From a virus (Duplodnaviria > Heunggongvirae > Uroviricota > Caudoviricetes), in IMG/VR virus record IMGVR_UViG_2531839661_000010: a stretch of 44,444 bases of DNA. One strand, written 5' to 3'. Below the pieces are notes generated by a model, which was given only the letters and a program-made list of their open reading frames with translations, was not told the DNA's origin and searched no databases. Numbering within the stretch: the first letter of the stretch is position 1; the number at the start of each line of letters is the position of its first letter. Both the position numbers and the translations under genes were made by a program. This document shows positions 30,174 through 43,076 of this stretch, piece after piece.

Positions 30174-30336
30174 GACTCCTCCTTGCTGCCAGTCGCAACC
30201 ATTTTTTATCAACCAGGCTGGCGGTATATCCGAGCAGTGTTGGTATTTCGGATGGCTTCAGCTCAGGTTTACGCTTACGACGATTTGGTACTCTGTAGAT
30301 GTGTCCGTTCATGACACGAATAAGCGGTGTAGCCAT
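30166..30336 (-). CDS. ninE: NinE-like small basic protein
   Basis: 56 aa from ATG at 30336 ([25 protein letters not shown]...); overlaps both neighbours by a few bases. Confidence 0.5.
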   Translation of the reverse strand: MATPLIRVMNGHIYRVPNRRKRKPELKPSEIPTLLGYTASLVDKKWLRLAARRSHG

Positions 30337-30791
30337 TACGCCTCCTGCTTGTCGCGCAGCAGCTGAAACTCGCAGCTCTGTGGAATAGTCAGGTGGCAAC
30401 CAATATTCATCGCCCAGGCTTCAACCTTACACAGGAAGACATACATCTCTCCGGTATCAAGATCGGAGGTATGGCGTAACGACTGGATAGTGGTGATATC
30501 ACCGGTTACGACATCAACCAGGTCTTTGGTTTCATAACCGAGATATGTGTGTTTGAGAGCATCTTTTACCCAAGCTGGAGTAGCGAACGTTTTACCCTTG
30601 CTGATGAGGTATTCACTGATTTCGCTGTACCACATGTGGCTGAGTGCATTCTGGGAAAGACTGCGTTTCTCACGCCACGGTTTAAGCACCATGCGAAAGC
30701 ATTTGCCTTCCTCCAGATAAGGCTGGATCTGCTGGCCGATAGCGGTGAAGTTGCCGCGATGTAATTTGATGCCGTCTTGTGGGAGGTTCAC
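30336..30791 (-). CDS. Nin-region protein, YbcN-like
   Basis: 151-aa ORF at the head of the nin operon; resemblance to DLP12 YbcN is from memory only. Confidence 0.5.
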
Positions 30792-30997
30792 GCTTCACCT
30801 CCGCAGAGGTCAAACGCTAGATGCAAAGAATTGCAGGTGCATTTCTGCATCTGTGAAAGGAGAAGATAGTTTGGATTGTATGTGCGCATAAACGTCCCCG
30901 TTTAGCGCAGAAGTCACCGGAGTTGTTCAGGCTCCGATTACTTAATTATGGCAAGTTGATTATCGCAAATCAAAGGTTTTAATTGTGCTTTATTCTT

Positions 30998-31198
30998 TCA
31001 AGCGTTTCCTTCATACCAAAGCCTATAAAGTTTTTCTTCTTCGTTTGGGTTAATAGGCTCACCATGTTTTAATTTTTCAGTGTACAAAATTGTTGAACAA
31101 ATCGCGGAAGTTAATCCAGTGATCGCCATCTGCCGCAGATCGGATTTTTGTGTCCCCCCCAACAGACGATCTCCCATCCATGTAATAATTGTATCCAT
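30998..31198 (-). CDS. Small hypothetical protein
   Basis: 66-aa ORF in an AT-rich stretch; no supporting signal beyond the open frame. Confidence 0.25.
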   Translation of the reverse strand: MDTIITWMGDRLLGGTQKSDLRQMAITGLTSAICSTILYTEKLKHGEPINPNEEEKLYRLWYEGNA

Positions 31199-31796
31199 GC
31201 TTCAGCCCTTCTTAGTAAATAGTGTGTAGGGCGACTGAAGGACCGAGTTTATGCTTTTTCGCATTGCTTTCAGTTAGTAGACCGGTATCGCACCGGAAAC
31301 AATCCTACGGCAAATTGGTTGTCTGACCTCTCGGTTTTTCGTGCATTAACCGATACCCACTACAGTCTCGGCGAAAGCTGCACACCCCCAAGGTGTACTG
31401 GTAGCACTCGGCACAGCCTAGCGCGCCACTTTCTTCTCACTATCCAGTCTAATTTTATCCCCTAGTCAGACACTCAGATGTAGTGCTCCGCAGCGGCATG
31501 CGGGGGAATACAAAAACTCGGACAAAATTGGGCCCTCCTTTTTGAATTACTCGCGGGGATGTAGTTATTAATACATGGGAAAAGATCTGTTTTCAAATCC
31601 AACATTATATGGTTTCAATACCACGGGGTGGCTATGTGGCTATGTGTTTCTCATTATTATTTACAATCTACTGTAATCGCTCCGAACGCAAATGCGTCAA
31701 TACTCGAATCAACTGATCATCCTGCCACGACTGAAATCTCAAATAGGCCGTTTCTCAAGTAAGAGATTTTGAATGCATTATTGGCTACTGAAATAA

Positions 31797-31826
31797 AAAA
31801 CCCAGCGCCAACTGGGTTCATATGAA
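31797..31826 (-). terminator. Rho-independent terminator after the secreted-protein gene
   Basis: Stem CCCAG/CTGGG around a 6-nt loop with U-runs on both strands (bidirectional), 10 bp downstream of the stop at 31836. Confidence 0.5.
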
Positions 31827-31835
31827 ATTTTTTTG

Positions 31836-32330
31836 TCATTTCCAATTGCAAGACTGTGAAATTTTTTCCACAACCTTATCAATCTCAGACAAGTCAAACT
31901 CAACTACTTGCATAGTTGATCCATAAGGTTCAAACCCAAAAATAGCTTTTTTATGCTTAGCCAAGGTCTTTATAAATTGTATTGGTTGTGGAGCAAATGC
32001 AGAATCACCGCCTTCCCCACCTCCCCAAACACTCTTGACCGGCTTTCCGCCATCTAACCGCACTGTAATTCTTGGGTTGTCCGAACCCATATAATCATTG
32101 AATGATAAATAGGCATCTGTTTTGTTATCACTACAACGCAACACCAGTGAAGTTGCACGATCAGTACCTGCTTTGTTATATGAATCTGGTGATAAATTAA
32201 GAGCCACAAAGTCAGTCTGGTCAGTCATTTTATTTATCTCAGACTTTGTTATCCACGGCCCTAACTTCTCTACACCAGCATTTGCTGTAAACGAGGCACT
32301 TATAACAAAGGCTAAAATAAATTTTCTCAT
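31836..32330 (-). CDS. Secreted (signal-peptide) protein of unknown function, accessory insertion
   Basis: MRKFILAFVISASFTANA signal peptide; AGGAG eight bases before the ATG; AT-rich; inserted where ren would continue. Confidence 0.55.
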   Translation of the reverse strand: MRKFILAFVISASFTANAGVEKLGPWITKSEINKMTDQTDFVALNLSPDSYNKAGTDRATSLVLRCSDNKTDAYLSFNDYMGSDNPRITVRLDGGKPVKSVWGGGEGGDSAFAPQPIQFIKTLAKHKKAIFGFEPYGSTMQVVEFDLSEIDKVVEKISQSCNWK

Positions 32331-32500
32331 AACCCTATCTCCTTGGATTCAAAGGACTAAATATTATCAAGTCTCTTGCCACTAGAAAACCCACTTTATT
32401 TCCAAACTCTGATGGCATTCCTTAAAATCCGCTTCATACTCACTTGCCCCGCCCTATCATCCTGAGTAGCTAACCGTTAAACAAACGTTCGCCAGACCTT

Positions 32501-32650
32501 ACCATCAATGACCAGGATTCCTGCCCGCGCCATTTTTGCCGCAGCCTGATTTATGCTGGTTAATGTCACACCTGTTGTCACAGCAACGTCCGGCGCACAG
32601 AAGCTCTTGTGCGTCTCCAGATAATGAATAATTGCCTCTTTGCCCGTCAT
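32501..32650 (-). pseudogene. ren: ren 5' remnant (49 codons)
   Basis: MTGKEAIIHYLETHKSFCAPDVAVTTGVTLTSINQAAAKMARAGILVID matches the N-terminus of lambda Ren as recalled, then stops; ATG overlaps the P stop (ATGA). Confidence 0.45.
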
Positions 32651-33348
32651 ACACTTGCTCCTTTCAGCCCAAACTTCGCTTTGATTTCTGCGATCTTCGC
32701 CAGAGCCTGAACACGATTAAGCGGTCTCCCGCCCATAACAGGAAGTTGTTTTACTGGTTCAGGTATCGCCTCACCACGGTTAATTCGCGCTGTCATACAG
32801 GCCAGTTCATCGGCAGCCTTGCGCCGTAATTCCGCATCAGTCAGCGCATTGCCCCGCATGTTCTGATACAGGTTGGTAACCAGCCAGTAGTGCGCGTTTG
32901 ATTTCCACGGATAAGACTCTGCATCCGGATACAGGCCACGTTTCCGGCAATACTCGTAAACCATATCAACCAGCTCGCTGGCGTTTGGCAGCCCGGCGGT
33001 AACGGATGCTTCTTCCCGGCACCAGGCAACAAACTGCCCGGGTGATGGCAGGAATGGTCGATTCTGCCGACGGGCTACGCGCATTCCTGCGTTAACCTGT
33101 TCCATCGTGGTGATCCCGTTTTCCCGGAAAGCCAGAACCCACTGGCGGCGGATTTCGTTCAGTTCGTTCTGGTCCCGGTTAGCCAGGCTCGCCGGGAAAG
33201 TTGCCAGTAACTGGCTGAACACACCATTGATGATCTGCGCTACCTGTTGTACCTGCGGCTTTTCGTCGTACTGTTCCGGCATGTTGTTGGCGATCCGGCG
33301 CATCTGCTCACGGTCAAAGTTAACCATCTGTGCGGCGATGTTTTTCAT
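32647..33348 (-). CDS. P: Replication protein P (DnaB helicase loader)
   Basis: 233-aa protein MKNIAAQMVNFDREQMRRIANNMPEQYDEKPQVQQVAQIINGVFSQLL... near-identical to lambda P as recalled. Confidence 0.95.
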   Translation of the reverse strand: MKNIAAQMVNFDREQMRRIANNMPEQYDEKPQVQQVAQIINGVFSQLLATFPASLANRDQNELNEIRRQWVLAFRENGITTMEQVNAGMRVARRQNRPFLPSPGQFVAWCREEASVTAGLPNASELVDMVYEYCRKRGLYPDAESYPWKSNAHYWLVTNLYQNMRGNALTDAELRRKAADELACMTARINRGEAIPEPVKQLPVMGGRPLNRVQALAKIAEIKAKFGLKGASV

Positions 33349-34364
33349 AAATCCACCCCGTAAATCCAGTCAGTGTTTGTCAGGTCGAGTTTTGATTTTC
33401 CGGCTGTCACGCCAGCCTGTTGCTTGTTACGGTTGATTTCGAGTTGGGTCCACTTGTCGCGGAGTTTGGCCGGACTTAGCACGTTACCGGACCAGAAGTT
33501 GTCCTGGCATGCCCAGCGGAACAGCACGCACATGTCGCGGTGGTTACGTCCGTCACGTTCACGCATCAGGCGGATATCGTTAGCCCACCCTGCAAAATTC
33601 GGTTTTCTGGCTGATGGCGCGATGGTCTTCACCATGTCAAACATCCACTCTGCGGCGGTCAGGTCTTCTGCTGTCCCCCACTTGCTGCCACTCTGAATTG
33701 CAGCATCCGGTTTCACCACAGGAAGGTCGTTTTCTGGCTGGTCAGAGGATTCGCCAGAATTCTCGGACGAAAAAGGTTTTATATTGTCTTTTGTTAGTTT
33801 GTCTTTTGTGTTTACCTGATTCGGGTAAACGCCTTTACCTGATTTGGGTAAACTTTTCTTACCTGATTCAGGTAAATTTACCTCTTTCAGGTAAACTTTA
33901 TTTTTCTTACCTGATTCGGGTAATGTTGACCATTCACTGACCACATTATTAATGCCGATATTTCGCCCGCTCTGAATAAGAATCCCACGCTTTACCAGAA
34001 CGCTTTTTGCAGCAGAACACTTGTGCGGCAATATCCCGGTCAATTCGGAAAGTTGCTCGTTGCTCACCCAATCCAGTCTTTTATTAAAGCCATATGTTTT
34101 GCGCATGACAGCCAGGAAGACCAGAAGCTGGTGCTGTGTTAATCCGGCCAGCATCACAGCTTCCAGCAACTCATTTGCAATGCGCGTATAACCATCATCG
34201 AGATCTGCCACGCGCGGCTCCTTTTGTGCCGCATCCGGCACTGGAAAATTGAATATCTCAGCAGTGTTTGCCATAATTCCTCCCGCAATGAGTGTGTTAC
34301 GATTTGCACCTGAAAGTCGGTTCTGTTCCCGCAGACCGACTTTCGCCATTTCTGAACCTGTCAT
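33345..34364 (-). CDS. O: Replication initiator O
   Basis: C-terminal third (GTAEDLTAAEWMFDMVKTIAPSARKPNFAGWANDIRLMRERDGRNHRDMCVLFRWACQ...) matches lambda O as recalled; N-terminal DNA-binding part diverged; iterons inside the gene. Confidence 0.9.
   Translation of the reverse strand: MTGSEMAKVGLREQNRLSGANRNTLIAGGIMANTAEIFNFPVPDAAQKEPRVADLDDGYTRIANELLEAVMLAGLTQHQLLVFLAVMRKTYGFNKRLDWVSNEQLSELTGILPHKCSAAKSVLVKRGILIQSGRNIGINNVVSEWSTLPESGKKNKVYLKEVNLPESGKKSLPKSGKGVYPNQVNTKDKLTKDNIKPFSSENSGESSDQPENDLPVVKPDAAIQSGSKWGTAEDLTAAEWMFDMVKTIAPSARKPNFAGWANDIRLMRERDGRNHRDMCVLFRWACQDNFWSGNVLSPAKLRDKWTQLEINRNKQQAGVTAGKSKLDLTNTDWIYGVDL
33811..33924. repeat. Replication origin iterons (O-binding sites) inside the O gene
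   Basis: Five copies of TTTACCTGATTCGGGTAAAC-like dyad repeats at about 24-bp spacing (33811, 33835, 33859, 33877, 33907), flanked by an AT-rich stretch at 33775-33810. Confidence 0.7.
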
Positions 34365-35961: not shown

Positions 35962-36041
35962 TACCAATTAAAAATTATCAACCGGGCATTGTGCTCATTC
36001 AGTAAAACAACTTAATTATTCATTTTAGAATGGAGAACTTA

Positions 36042-37103
36042 ATGGATACTTTAAAATATGAGAAATTCTCTGATTTTGATCACAATGACCCATTTTTTGA
36101 CTCTTTAAAAAAAGATTATAAAGAGTTTCCTCTTTGGTTAGAAAAAAAAGCCAGAGAAGGAGAATCAGCTTATGTGCTCTATGATGACAAGCATAAAATC
36201 GAAGGTTTTATGTATCTAAAAGAAAATGATGATGCAAATGACATTAATCCAGCGCTCCCACCAGGACGTCATCTAAAGATAGGAACATTCAAATTTGAAT
36301 CTAAAGGCACCCTTCGCGGACAACGATTTCTAAAAAAAGCGTTTGACCATGCATTTTCATCAAAATCTGATGATATTTATGTTACTGTTTTCGACAAACA
36401 CGTCCATCTAATAAAACTTTTCCAAACGTACGGATTTTACATTCATGGTGAAAAAGAAACACATAACGGGAAAGAGTTTGTATATGCGAGGTCTTTGCAT
36501 GAGCCTTATGGTGATATTTTATTAGATTACCCTCGAATAATGACATCAAGGGCCAACAAATATTTACTGGCGATTTATCCCGAATATCACACTAGACTAT
36601 TCCCTGATTCAAAACTTGTAAATGAATCACCAGATATTGTCAAAGATATATCCCATGCTAACAGCATTCATAAAATTTACATATGTGGAATGCGTTCTGT
36701 GATGGGAATGAAAAGAGGAGATATCATTGTCATCTATAGAACCGGAGACAAAAAAGGGCCAGCTCGCTATCGTTCTGTAGCCAGTACATTATGTGTAGTT
36801 GAGAGCGTAAAAAATATTTCTGAATTTTTAAGCGAAGATAGTTTTGTAGACTATTGTATTCGTTTTAGCGTATTTTCTGAAGATGAACTCAGAAAAATCT
36901 ATAAAGAACGTCGATACCCTTTCATTATAAGATTCACATACAATCTGTCTTTGCCAAAGAGACCCAATCGTGCTATTTTAATAGATCATGTGGGGCTAAA
37001 TGGTTCGCGTGCATTCCGATGGAGTCACTTTAAACTCACAAATGAGCAGTTCTTAAAGATCATCGAGTTAGGCAAGATAAATGAAAGTTTTATTATCCAT
37101 TAA
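36042..37103 (+). CDS. Two-domain protein: GNAT-like acetyltransferase-fold N-terminal half plus PUA/ASCH-like C-terminal half
   Basis: HLKIGTFKFESKGTLRGQRFLKKAFDHAF...IYVTVFDKHVHLIKLFQTYGFYIHGE resembles GNAT motifs A and B; C-terminal LLAIYPEYHTRLF...GMKRGDIIVIYRTG resembles a PUA-like barrel; GGAG six bases before ATG 36042; about 30 percent GC. Confidence 0.5.
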   Translation: MDTLKYEKFSDFDHNDPFFDSLKKDYKEFPLWLEKKAREGESAYVLYDDKHKIEGFMYLKENDDANDINPALPPGRHLKIGTFKFESKGTLRGQRFLKKAFDHAFSSKSDDIYVTVFDKHVHLIKLFQTYGFYIHGEKETHNGKEFVYARSLHEPYGDILLDYPRIMTSRANKYLLAIYPEYHTRLFPDSKLVNESPDIVKDISHANSIHKIYICGMRSVMGMKRGDIIVIYRTGDKKGPARYRSVASTLCVVESVKNISEFLSEDSFVDYCIRFSVFSEDELRKIYKERRYPFIIRFTYNLSLPKRPNRAILIDHVGLNGSRAFRWSHFKLTNEQFLKIIELGKINESFIIH

Positions 37104-37458
37104 GCCTGAGTTTGCAGAAAAAATATTGAACGGAACAAAGCGGTTCGAGTTTCGTAAAGGTATATTCAAAAATCCGCAAATTAGCACCGTTGTTATTTAT
37201 GCCACGATGCCATTAGGTAAAGTTGTTGGCCAATTCCGTATTGAATCAATACTAAGTGACGAACCGGAATCTCTTTGGAAAAAGACGGAAAAACACGCAG
37301 GTATTTCTAAGCAATTTTATGACTCATATTATTCAGGTAGAGAAAAGGCCTACGCAATAAAAATTGGTGAAGTGGAAAGATATAAAGAACCAATTCCTAT
37401 CTCTGCTCTAGGTAGTAATATTAAGCCACCACAATCATATCTTTACCTACCTGCGTAA
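37081..37458 (+). CDS. ASCH-domain protein
   Basis: N-terminus MKVLLSIKPEFAEKILNGTKRFEFRKG carries the GxKxxExR-type ASCH signature; 125 aa; start overlaps the upstream gene by 23 bp. Confidence 0.6.
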   Translation: MKVLLSIKPEFAEKILNGTKRFEFRKGIFKNPQISTVVIYATMPLGKVVGQFRIESILSDEPESLWKKTEKHAGISKQFYDSYYSGREKAYAIKIGEVERYKEPIPISALGSNIKPPQSYLYLPA

Positions 37459-43000: not shown

Positions 43001-43076
43001 TGGTGCCGATAATAGGAGTCGAACCTACGACCTTCGCATTACGAATGCGCTGCTCTACCAACTGAGCTATATCGGC
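43001..43076 (-). tRNA. thrW: tRNA-Thr (anticodon CGT)
   Basis: Reverse complement GCCGATATAGCTCAGTTGGTAGAGCAGCGCATTCGTAATGCGAAGGTCGTAGGTTCGACTCCTATTATCGGCACCA folds as a 76-nt cloverleaf with CGT anticodon and CCA end. Confidence 0.9.

Follow-up and report, generated by a model that had tools for sequence, protein, structure and literature searches.

The 44,444-nt viral window analysed here (IMGVR_UViG_2531839661_000010), to which all coordinates refer, almost certainly holds a real structured RNA on its minus strand at 31560-31230, in a stretch between ren and ninB that lacks open reading frames (ORFs) of 60 codons or more. This RNA of ~331 nt belongs to a well-supported family that matches no Rfam 15 family and that we found neither described nor annotated. 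Like the RNA, all genes of the region are on the minus strand.

An RNA family in the nin region of lambdoid phages

The first sign of the element was a 78% identity to Klebsiella phage Kp4856-1 that is confined to ~31225-31560, with unrelated flanks on both sides. Pattern scans of IMG/VR, GTDB genomes and metagenomes, combined with nhmmer and a covariance model (R1), yielded ~100 RNA loci comprising ~37 distinct sequences, all of them from lambdoid phages or prophages, where they lie in the nin region. The viable phages Turner, IdasGreatGrand and Kp4856-1 carry the RNA, and the hosts given by name belong to Escherichia, Klebsiella, Enterobacter and Obesumbacterium. In complete E. coli genomes it was found in 159 out of 5426, with one copy each; the annotation by the Prokaryotic Genome Annotation Pipeline (PGAP) contains it in none of these 159. 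A further pattern scan of viral contigs recovered the same family only, and the sole more distant relative, L086, was obtained via the covariance model, against which it scores 187 bits. The genes upstream and downstream of the RNA vary among the loci.

When the window was scanned with the 4227 models of Rfam 15 at gathering thresholds, the only match was a tRNA at 43004-43076. At E <= 10, the region 30750-32700 gave a single chance match to rliB, located outside the RNA, and nine homologous loci gave nothing consistent over the RNA. Such a scan had been proposed in the original prediction, made from the letters of the window; it names no family for the element, for which a conserved fold was nevertheless found (see below). 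Further downstream in two of the RNA-bearing phages, the Rfam model of the Hfq-binding small RNA isrJ scored above its gathering threshold (L073:2253-2329 and L074:3314-3392). Literature searches by sequence string and by topic returned no description of the RNA, with the restriction that an overlap with the short candidates of one catalogue could not be checked. This catalogue, mined from IMG/VR, comprises 8,495 short candidate structured RNAs of 151 nt or less (PMC10690425).

In an E. coli variant (L045:3010-4344), other sequence takes the place of the RNA 3' part from ...GCGAAAA onwards, followed by a 296-aa ORF, the N-terminus of which we take to resemble the IS21 transposase IstA; this would be a natural disruption of the RNA gene. 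In Obesumbacterium proteus (L165:1295-2136), ~840 nt without a called gene lie between P and the RNA.

RNAalifold predicted 97 base pairs for the family, 28 of them with compensatory changes. The fold consists of 16 helices arranged in two domains, which are closed by helices 3-8/101-106 and 114-119/325-330 (RNA numbering). A scan of column pairs added two tertiary interactions that bridge the domains, a 6-bp kissing loop and an 8-bp pseudoknot (strands in Table 1). In the kissing loop, three of six pairs covary and 98.9% of the alignment cells are paired, the variants being CACUAC/GUAGUG, CGCAAC/GUUGCG, CACCAC/GUGGUG and CAUCAC/GUGAUG. The pseudoknot likewise has three covarying pairs, with 99.6% of cells paired. 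Even the divergent L086 keeps the kissing loop, and its pseudoknot shows a double compensatory change (GUCCGGC/GCCGGAC versus GUCUGAC/GUCAGAC). For the named structure including both tertiary interactions, standard pairs occupy 96.7% of cells in an alignment of 35 sequences and 96.6% in one of 29 sequences that includes L086; in a control that preserves relatedness, with the partners slid by 1-3 columns, only 35-42% are paired. Changes on both sides occur in 26 pairs (35 sequences) and in 30 of 99 pairs (29 sequences), respectively. The G-U pairs, the terminators downstream and the promoter upstream of the element all fit the minus strand.

As the original prediction had it, the stretch 31200-31835 is touched in no frame by an ORF of at least 60 codons; the longest measures 48 aa. 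That prediction offered a small RNA or decayed sequence as explanations. The former was right in kind, although an RNA of ~331 nt with multiple helices and a pseudoknot is not small; decay does not apply to the RNA block. It also saw no repeat or motif that would identify the stretch. With respect to repeats this holds, save for an 8-nt unit GTGGCTAT present 2.4 times at 31628-31646, a duplication that closely precedes the RNA promoter and is shorter by one unit in Turner; Tandem Repeats Finder and a repeat finder detected no others in the stretch and none inside 31230-31560. What escaped it is the strongly conserved 331-nt element, which is invisible in a single sequence. A lack of conserved structure, named there as a ground for refutation, is clearly contradicted by the fold.

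Coding periodicity of 3 nt is not seen in the RNA block (p = 0.17), and in most members every one of the six frames is interrupted by stops. Neither the length nor the frame of the ORFs is consistent across the members, some of which have antisense ORFs of up to 179 aa. A protein-coding reading of the block was rejected on account of the absent periodicity and the inconsistent ORFs. At 31539-31480 (RNA 24-83), a 19-codon frame (MSEFLYSPACRCGALHLSV) begins with a UUG and terminates within the pseudoknot strand; a perfect Shine-Dalgarno sequence, AAGGAGG, precedes this UUG by 7 nt. A frame of 16-19 aa behind AAGGAGG is present in all lineages, with frame shifts in L075 and L076; where it is variable (L053/L054), every change read alters an amino acid and no synonymous variation was seen. 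It is unlikely that this short ORF is the function of the element, and the 19-codon frame with its AAGGAGG may represent a leader peptide or have a ribosome-binding role.

The RNA would quite probably be made as a discrete transcript from its own promoter. The predicted sigma70-type promoter (Table 1) is kept in 31 distinct upstream variants, which have a -35 hexamer TTGAAA, TTGAAT or TTGTAT, a variable spacer of 17 nt and a -10 hexamer TTTAAT, TTAAAT or TATTAA. Transcription is predicted to start (+1) at the A at 31560, with which the closing helix AUCCCC/GGGGAU begins. At the opposite end, the last conserved bases (...CAGUCGCC) reach 31230, and 8-15 variable nt separate them from a canonical intrinsic terminator in most lineages other than that of E. 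coli. In the lineage of the window the terminator is absent, and the ribosome-binding site and ATG of the next ORF come after 32 nt; since there is no terminator, the transcript would run into this truncated 66-aa ORF. In many lineages (L057, L061, L063, L067, L069 and others), a palindrome ACCATATGTTGTATGGT is found at -55 to -33 from the RNA start, abutting or overlapping the -35 hexamer. This palindrome may be an operator, or else belong to the gene upstream as its end hairpin.

Possible functions of the RNA and the genes behind it

We tentatively lean towards an autonomous, fold-dependent RNA that acts in trans. According to this proposal, the RNA would act through its tertiary fold as a protein-binding scaffold, decoy or regulator, made by the prophage as well as during lytic growth, and would be an autonomous module whose downstream site takes swapped small accessory genes. 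A role as antisense base-pairer or as mRNA is unlikely. The ninB mRNA was considered as a target and rejected: the perfect 12-nt complementarity of 30481-30492 to RNA 114-125 (GACUGGAUAGUG), the best within the window, is at chance level (E = 0.7), and this RNA segment differs by one base in other lineages.

Closest in kind are the large phage RNAs of the ROOL/GOLLD type. Together with raiA, these 'ornate' RNAs share with the present one that they are large stand-alone genes of phages or prophages with many helices, tertiary contacts and covariation. They differ in that those families are in Rfam, where none was matched, whereas the hosts here are lambdoid phages of Enterobacterales and the RNA occupies a fixed nin-region slot with a swappable gene downstream. 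ROOL/GOLLD-type RNAs also measure roughly 600-800 nt, compared to ~331 nt here. Next in line, by gene order, are the type III toxin-antitoxin systems. The RNA is in neither group, because it has no covariance-model match, no repeats and no obligate partner.

In a survey of 102 loci with a complete RNA, we classified the small gene found behind it, termed cargo here. Type A (118 aa) is present in 64 loci without a terminator after the RNA. Types B (176-183 aa with an Rx4H motif; 10 loci) and C (178-191 aa with two transmembrane helices; 14 loci) are preceded by a terminator; no T-run was seen with types D (four loci) and E (two loci). Four further loci have a terminator and no recognised cargo gene, the next gene being ninB, DUF1367 or an unclassified one, and the downstream sequence of the remaining four, with mixed terminator status, was too short to classify. 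Altogether, a terminator follows the RNA in ~30 of the 102 loci. The 66-aa ORF of the window corresponds to the 118-aa gene of Turner minus 123 bp (L002:4231-4353), with an 11-bp overlap at the junction 31009-31019; it begins 32 nt past the RNA end, from which no terminator separates it, and this truncated allele is common enough to have a PHROG of its own, phrog_8527.

None of the cargo proteins had a match in PADLOC, Pfam or NCBIfam. The AlphaFold2 (AF2) model of type A is a generic four-helix bundle. In type B we read the motif RHNLLH (Rx4H), which was the sole basis of a tentative HEPN reading. The label of a SLATT two-transmembrane effector for type C goes back only to the UniRef name of one distant homologue (P0052), and the SLATT Pfam models matched none of 27 members of the type C family at E <= 1. 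Small accessory genes are probably exchanged at the site behind the RNA, and some of them resemble toxins or effectors. In three E. coli loci (L162-L164; L162:1-3600) that share with the window the backbone O, P, 57-aa ren and 164-aa VasI-like gene, a module encoding a 108-aa, a 51-aa and a 181-aa two-transmembrane protein replaces the RNA and the 66-aa ORF. These loci represent natural RNA-minus sister prophages that would lend themselves as controls.

As the gene order is like that of type III toxin-antitoxin systems, the link between RNA and cargo was put to the test with tblastn, look-ups of homologues, nhmmer and the covariance model. Among the records of the phage collection, only the four that bear the RNA contain types A and B. 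A large protein collection, however, places homologues of type C (33-51% identity) and of type A (51%) in prophages that lack the RNA. Cargo types are not distributed along RNA lineages, and L054 has the RNA with no cargo gene. The link is frequent, not obligate; an obligate one is ruled out by the cargo homologues without RNA and the RNA without cargo.

Several points weigh against our view of a novel, autonomous RNA. The family is narrow, with members at least ~64% identical save for L086 and an effective sequence number of 1.14 in the covariance model, and much of the covariation therefore comes from perhaps 8-10 lineages. Although none of 500 shuffles reached the observed values, these controls ignore phylogeny, and the folding energy of the single sequence is ordinary (z = -0.79), a measure that is uninformative on either strand. 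The promoter, the +1 and the 3' end are predictions, and a simple promoter scan does not list the RNA promoter because it demands a T at position 6 of the -10 hexamer. In the terminator-less lineage of the window, the RNA may exist only as a 5' leader. A small gene lies within 20-40 nt of the RNA in 98 of the 102 loci; this closeness and the lack of room for a separate promoter in types B and C also fit a cis-acting or antitoxin role. No partner protein or target was found, the search for base-pairing within the window giving matches at chance level only. As to novelty, fragments of the RNA could already sit among the candidates of the above-mentioned catalogue (PMC10690425).

The same closeness underlies the idea, doubtful in our opinion, that the RNA and the next gene form one cassette, in which the abundant folded RNA would serve as antitoxin, sensor or gate for a toxic or defence effector that is transcribed only when the terminator is read through, much as in a type III toxin-antitoxin locus or an abortive infection system whose RNA is large and non-repetitive. 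In types B and C, promoter, RNA and terminator are followed by a start codon ~20 nt on, and therefore there is no room for a separate promoter. A small cargo stands directly behind the RNA in nearly all loci, and its look is effector-like in type C, with two transmembrane helices and the SLATT name of a distant homologue, and in type B, with RHNLLH. Also, the phage records tie types A and B to the RNA, and within a cargo type the divergence of RNA and cargo appears comparable as judged by eye. However, one conserved RNA precedes at least five unrelated proteins, cargo type does not track the RNA lineage, the L054 RNA lacks a cargo, and prophages without an upstream RNA harbour relatives of types C and A. 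Moreover, the RNA has no tandem repeats, the cargos remained blank in PADLOC, Pfam, NCBIfam and the SLATT models, the type A fold is generic, and the window combines an intact RNA with a truncated cargo.

A comparison with known type III toxin-antitoxin and abortive infection (Abi) systems (ToxIN, CptIN and TenpIN, or AbiF with its non-coding RNA) gives a similar picture. Shared are the order of promoter, RNA, terminator and promoterless gene in types B and C and the location on mobile elements. By contrast, one fold of 331 nt makes up the present RNA in place of tandem repeats, the cargo proteins are of diverse kinds without relation to ToxN or AbiF, RNA and cargo are not obligately associated, and the window lineage has no terminator and a truncated ORF. 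Neither a tandem-repeat antitoxin nor an obligate order and pairing nor a ToxN/AbiQ-type endoribonuclease was found. It is likewise doubtful that the RNA is the conserved core of a new RNA-centred accessory cassette of lambdoid phages, in which a folded RNA, produced in excess from its own promoter, would as antitoxin, sensor or scaffold sense or gate any small toxic or defence effector plugged in behind the terminator, or a new catalytic or protein-sequestering RNA directed against the host or a rival phage.

Rather improbable is the suggestion that the important part of the region is the secreted 164-aa protein, acting in superinfection exclusion or virulence as the original prediction surmised. 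Its gene was correctly described as having a signal peptide, a ribosome-binding site and a terminator of its own. The N-terminus is of the Sec type, with MRKFILAFVISASFTANA|G and a signal peptide over codons 1-18 as read from the sequence, and residues 1-17 are disordered in the AF2 model; AAGGAG is placed 8 nt before the ATG, and the terminator has a 9-bp stem (31819-31798), a 4-nt loop and a T-run. The gene lies in an AT-rich module of the moron kind, and its family is conserved across Enterobacterales prophages, relatives of ~165 aa being 54-81% identical under the source names Salmonella, Enterobacter, Citrobacter, Pantoea, Serratia and Klebsiella. On the other hand, a role in exclusion or virulence found no support in the tests run: PADLOC gave no hit, phrog_1848 has no assigned function, and a scan for sigma70-type promoters revealed none for the gene on its strand. 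Furthermore, the function of TagO/VasI is given as unknown in a 2026 review (PMC13584744).

The homology and structure searches that had been suggested for this protein were carried out. It matches phrog_1848 over its full length (E = 2.7e-70, residues 1-164 versus profile positions 1-166 of 166). The match to Pfam VasI (PF11319) is marginal, with 26.7 bits against a gathering score of 26.5, and covers only residues 56-163, the C-terminal 108 residues. It is the sole type VI-related profile match found and may be the basis of the PGAP name 'T6SS-associated protein TagO' (T6SS, type VI secretion system). The VasI equivalog TIGR03360 was missed, with 14.4 bits at a cut-off of 124.2, and the gene is outside any T6SS cluster, its neighbours being phage P, ren, ninB, ninE, rusA and Q. 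The 'TagO' label is a weak, domain-level name. A sequence search against solved structures gave no match, and the similarity to IalB of Bartonella (PDB 3dtd) is at the level of the fold only, with 9% identity. In common with VasI/TagO and IalB, the protein is modelled as a periplasmic beta-sandwich, its C-terminal 108 residues matching the VasI profile at threshold; unlike VasI/TagO, it is encoded in a prophage nin region without a T6SS cluster, does not satisfy TIGR03360 and belongs to phrog_1848. The gene is an ordinary, recurrent prophage moron, separate from the RNA. In E. coli M15 (L173:1155-2368), an IS3-family element has inserted downstream of the 164-aa gene and immediately ahead of the promoter region of the RNA.

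Improbable, too, is a cis-acting transcription element of the early-right operon, that is, a put/EAR-like antiterminator or an attenuator at a tR2-equivalent terminator before ninB and Q. The RNA is on the early-right strand, with an intrinsic terminator right after it in most lineages, and its position is exactly that of tR2 in lambda. No N-like gene was seen between the cI-like gene and kil, although this is weak negative evidence. As with the put RNAs of HK022 and the EAR RNA, we would deal with a structured RNA in a lambdoid early operon (put) upstream of terminators that acts as a fold and not by base-pairing. The put RNAs, however, are two-hairpin elements of ~70 nt, unlike the 16-helix fold. 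The present RNA is about five times larger, lacks the two-hairpin architecture and any sequence resemblance, has its own conserved predicted promoter and lies in the nin region instead of close behind pL or pR. Neither the length nor the sequence of the linker that joins RNA and terminator is constant, and 64 of the 102 loci, those of the E. coli lineage, keep the RNA intact although they lack a terminator. By eye, no change at the RNA 3' end tracks the differing terminator stems, and the RNA is therefore a poor fit to a riboswitch-like expression platform.

We regard as very improbable a ribozyme or the RNA of a mobile or retro-element (group-I-like, self-cleaving, guide or bridge RNA) whose protein is encoded elsewhere or lost. 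In size and complexity, with its 16 helices, pseudoknot, kissing loop and long single-stranded segments that are invariant, the RNA is comparable to catalytic RNAs. What is exchanged horizontally is the RNA together with its promoter, and a serine recombinase gene lies 0.5 kb upstream in Turner. Against this, no Rfam model of a ribozyme, intron, HEARO or guide RNA was matched at E <= 10, no recombinase, reverse transcriptase or nuclease is consistently nearby, no gene is interrupted, and there is one copy per genome. With regard to retrons, no reverse transcriptase was recognised on reading the ORFs within 3 kb on either side of the RNA in 21 diverse loci, and the scanned flanking proteins matched no reverse-transcriptase family.

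Finally, it is hardly tenable that relatedness feigns an RNA structure in a stretch consisting of decayed coding sequence or functioning as duplex DNA (operators, an origin or a recombination site), for although the antirepressor remnant (31668-31756) is gene debris, antisense ORFs reach 179 aa in some members and the narrow family makes the shuffle controls generous, codon periodicity is absent, ORF lengths and frames are inconsistent, compensatory changes include long-range pairs with 96.6% pairing versus ~40% in the slid control that preserves relatedness, G-U pairs are strand-specific, and promoter and terminators bracket the element precisely.

The ren pseudogene, the replacement module and the locus

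A DLP12-like lambdoid prophage in E. coli PEC1011 is 100% identical to the queried 1.87 kb of the window (30790-32660). The early-right operon proceeds on the minus strand from O and P through the ren-like ORF, the 164-aa ORF, the gap and the 66-aa ORF to ybcN/ninB (Table 1). We consider it somewhat more plausible than its negation that three parts of independent nature, the dead ren gene, the 649-bp moron and the RNA gene, form a mosaic in the accessory slot between ren and ninB of such a DLP12-like prophage.

Table 1. Positions of the RNA, its structural and flanking elements and the neighbouring genes in the window
Feature	Position	Strand	Basis or remarks
Structured non-coding RNA, ~331 nt, 5' AUCCCCGCGAG ... 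CAGUCGCC 3'	31230-31560	-	conservation, covariation, covariance model 386 bits
Kissing loop, 5' strand CACUAC (RNA 78-83)	31480-31485	-	pairs with 31358-31363
Kissing loop, 3' strand GUAGUG (RNA 200-205)	31358-31363	-	in the loop of hairpin 191-214
Pseudoknot, 5' strand GUCUGACU (RNA 92-99)	31464-31471	-	pairs with 31321-31328
Pseudoknot, 3' strand GGUCAGAC (RNA 235-242)	31321-31328	-	pairs with 31464-31471
Predicted sigma70-type promoter of the RNA	31568-31596	-	-35 TTGAAA 31596-31591, 17-nt spacer, -10 TATTAA 31573-31568
66-aa ORF, truncated type A cargo	30998-31198	-	phrog_8527, phrog_12412; comparison with Turner
Antirepressor-like gene remnant, last ~29 codons	31668-31756	-	PF10548 on the 107-aa Turner ORF; blastn
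AT-rich replacement module, 649 bp	31757-32405	-	blastn against phage Turner (L002), Turner annotation, composition
Intrinsic terminator of the 164-aa gene	31789-31819	-	9-bp stem, 4-nt loop, T-run
164-aa secreted-protein gene	31836-32330	-	phrog_1848; VasI/TagO-like, IalB-fold beta-sandwich
Shine-Dalgarno sequence AAGGAG	32339-32344	-	8 nt before the ATG of the 164-aa gene; read from the sequence
ren pseudogene	32406-32650	-	phrog_142 and phrog_7054 matches; alignment with Turner ren; PGAP pseudogene calls
P	32647-33348	-	early-right operon
O	33345-34364	-	early-right operon
ybcN/ninB	30336-30791	-	followed by ninE, ybcO, rusA, quuD

The ORF after P begins like lambda ren, as had been recognised beforehand: it matches the Ren-like profile phrog_142 (E = 2.3e-19) and phrog_7054 (57/57), and it aligns with the intact 100-aa ren of phage Turner. 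This comparison with an intact gene, which the original prediction had recommended, confirms that ren is a non-functional pseudogene. Two details of that prediction need correction. The ORF (32477-32650) is open for 57 codons and not 49, with a TAA at 32477-32479 as codon 58; a 49-aa ORF (32505-32654) lies in another frame. Nor did an insertion truncate ren, as the stop is a point nonsense change (TAC>TAA) relative to Turner, which reads ..TGG CGA ACG GTG TAT TAC.. where the window has ..TGG CGA ACG TTT GTT TAA. Past the stop, ren homology extends for ~70 nt more up to 32406, out of frame and with a 1-nt deletion; the final ~18 codons are missing and replaced by the 649-bp module at 32405/32406. 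In a sister genome, PGAP labels ren as 'frameshifted; internal stop', and the 57-aa allele occurs often enough to form a separate PHROG, phrog_7054. With lambda Ren, the protein for escape from Rex exclusion, it shares homology over the first 55-57 residues and a place right after P with overlapping stop and start; it differs by the early stop, the deletion and the replaced end, so that an intact ORF of ~96-100 aa is not present.

The 649-bp module stands in place of ~2.6 kb in phage Turner, which there comprise the ren 3' end, an emrE/qacE-like gene, a ybcK-like serine recombinase gene and an antirepressor fragment. The presumed AT-rich insertion of 1.3 kb shrinks to this replacement, and AT-richness is confined to it: the GC content is 0.36-0.43 in the module and 0.47-0.52 in the RNA part of the ORF-free stretch (composition profile). 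The left junction at 31756/31757 falls within the ORF-free stretch, where the terminator of the 164-aa gene, the junction, the antirepressor remnant, the 8-nt duplication and the conserved RNA block succeed each other on the minus strand. The parent gene of the remnant is a 107-aa ORF in phage Turner that encodes a P22-antirepressor C-terminal domain. Contrary to the earlier description, the RNA is not in the same insertion as the secreted-protein gene, because Turner and IdasGreatGrand carry the RNA with an intact ren and without that gene.

Elsewhere in the window, a scan for tRNAs and tmRNAs found a tRNA-Thr (CGU) gene at 43001-43076 on the minus strand, the sole match there, near the window end; it is possibly the attachment region of the prophage. 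Directly after the cI-like repressor, where lambda has rexAB, two overlapping genes (36030-37458) encode a hypothetical protein of 357 aa and an ASCH-domain protein of 125 aa. This gene pair is a candidate prophage defence pair.

Implications for lambdoid phages and prophages

Lambdoid phages of E. coli are among the best-studied genomes, yet ~3% of complete E. coli genomes carry this unannotated 331-nt RNA, as do viable phages infecting E. coli and Klebsiella. 'Gene-free' gaps of prophages can hence hide conserved RNA genes under annotation by PGAP and Rfam. Folds as complex as this one, in which a kissing loop and a pseudoknot add to 16 helices, are typically seen in ribozymes, riboswitches or ribonucleoprotein scaffolds. 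With Turner genetics in K-12 and the natural variants L045 and L162-L164, a tractable system for a large phage RNA is at hand. Since the downstream slot swaps possible toxin or defence genes, the locus could tie RNA structure to conflicts between phage and host or between phages. If the cassette or the catalytic reading were true, the RNA would represent a new functional RNA class in E. coli prophages.

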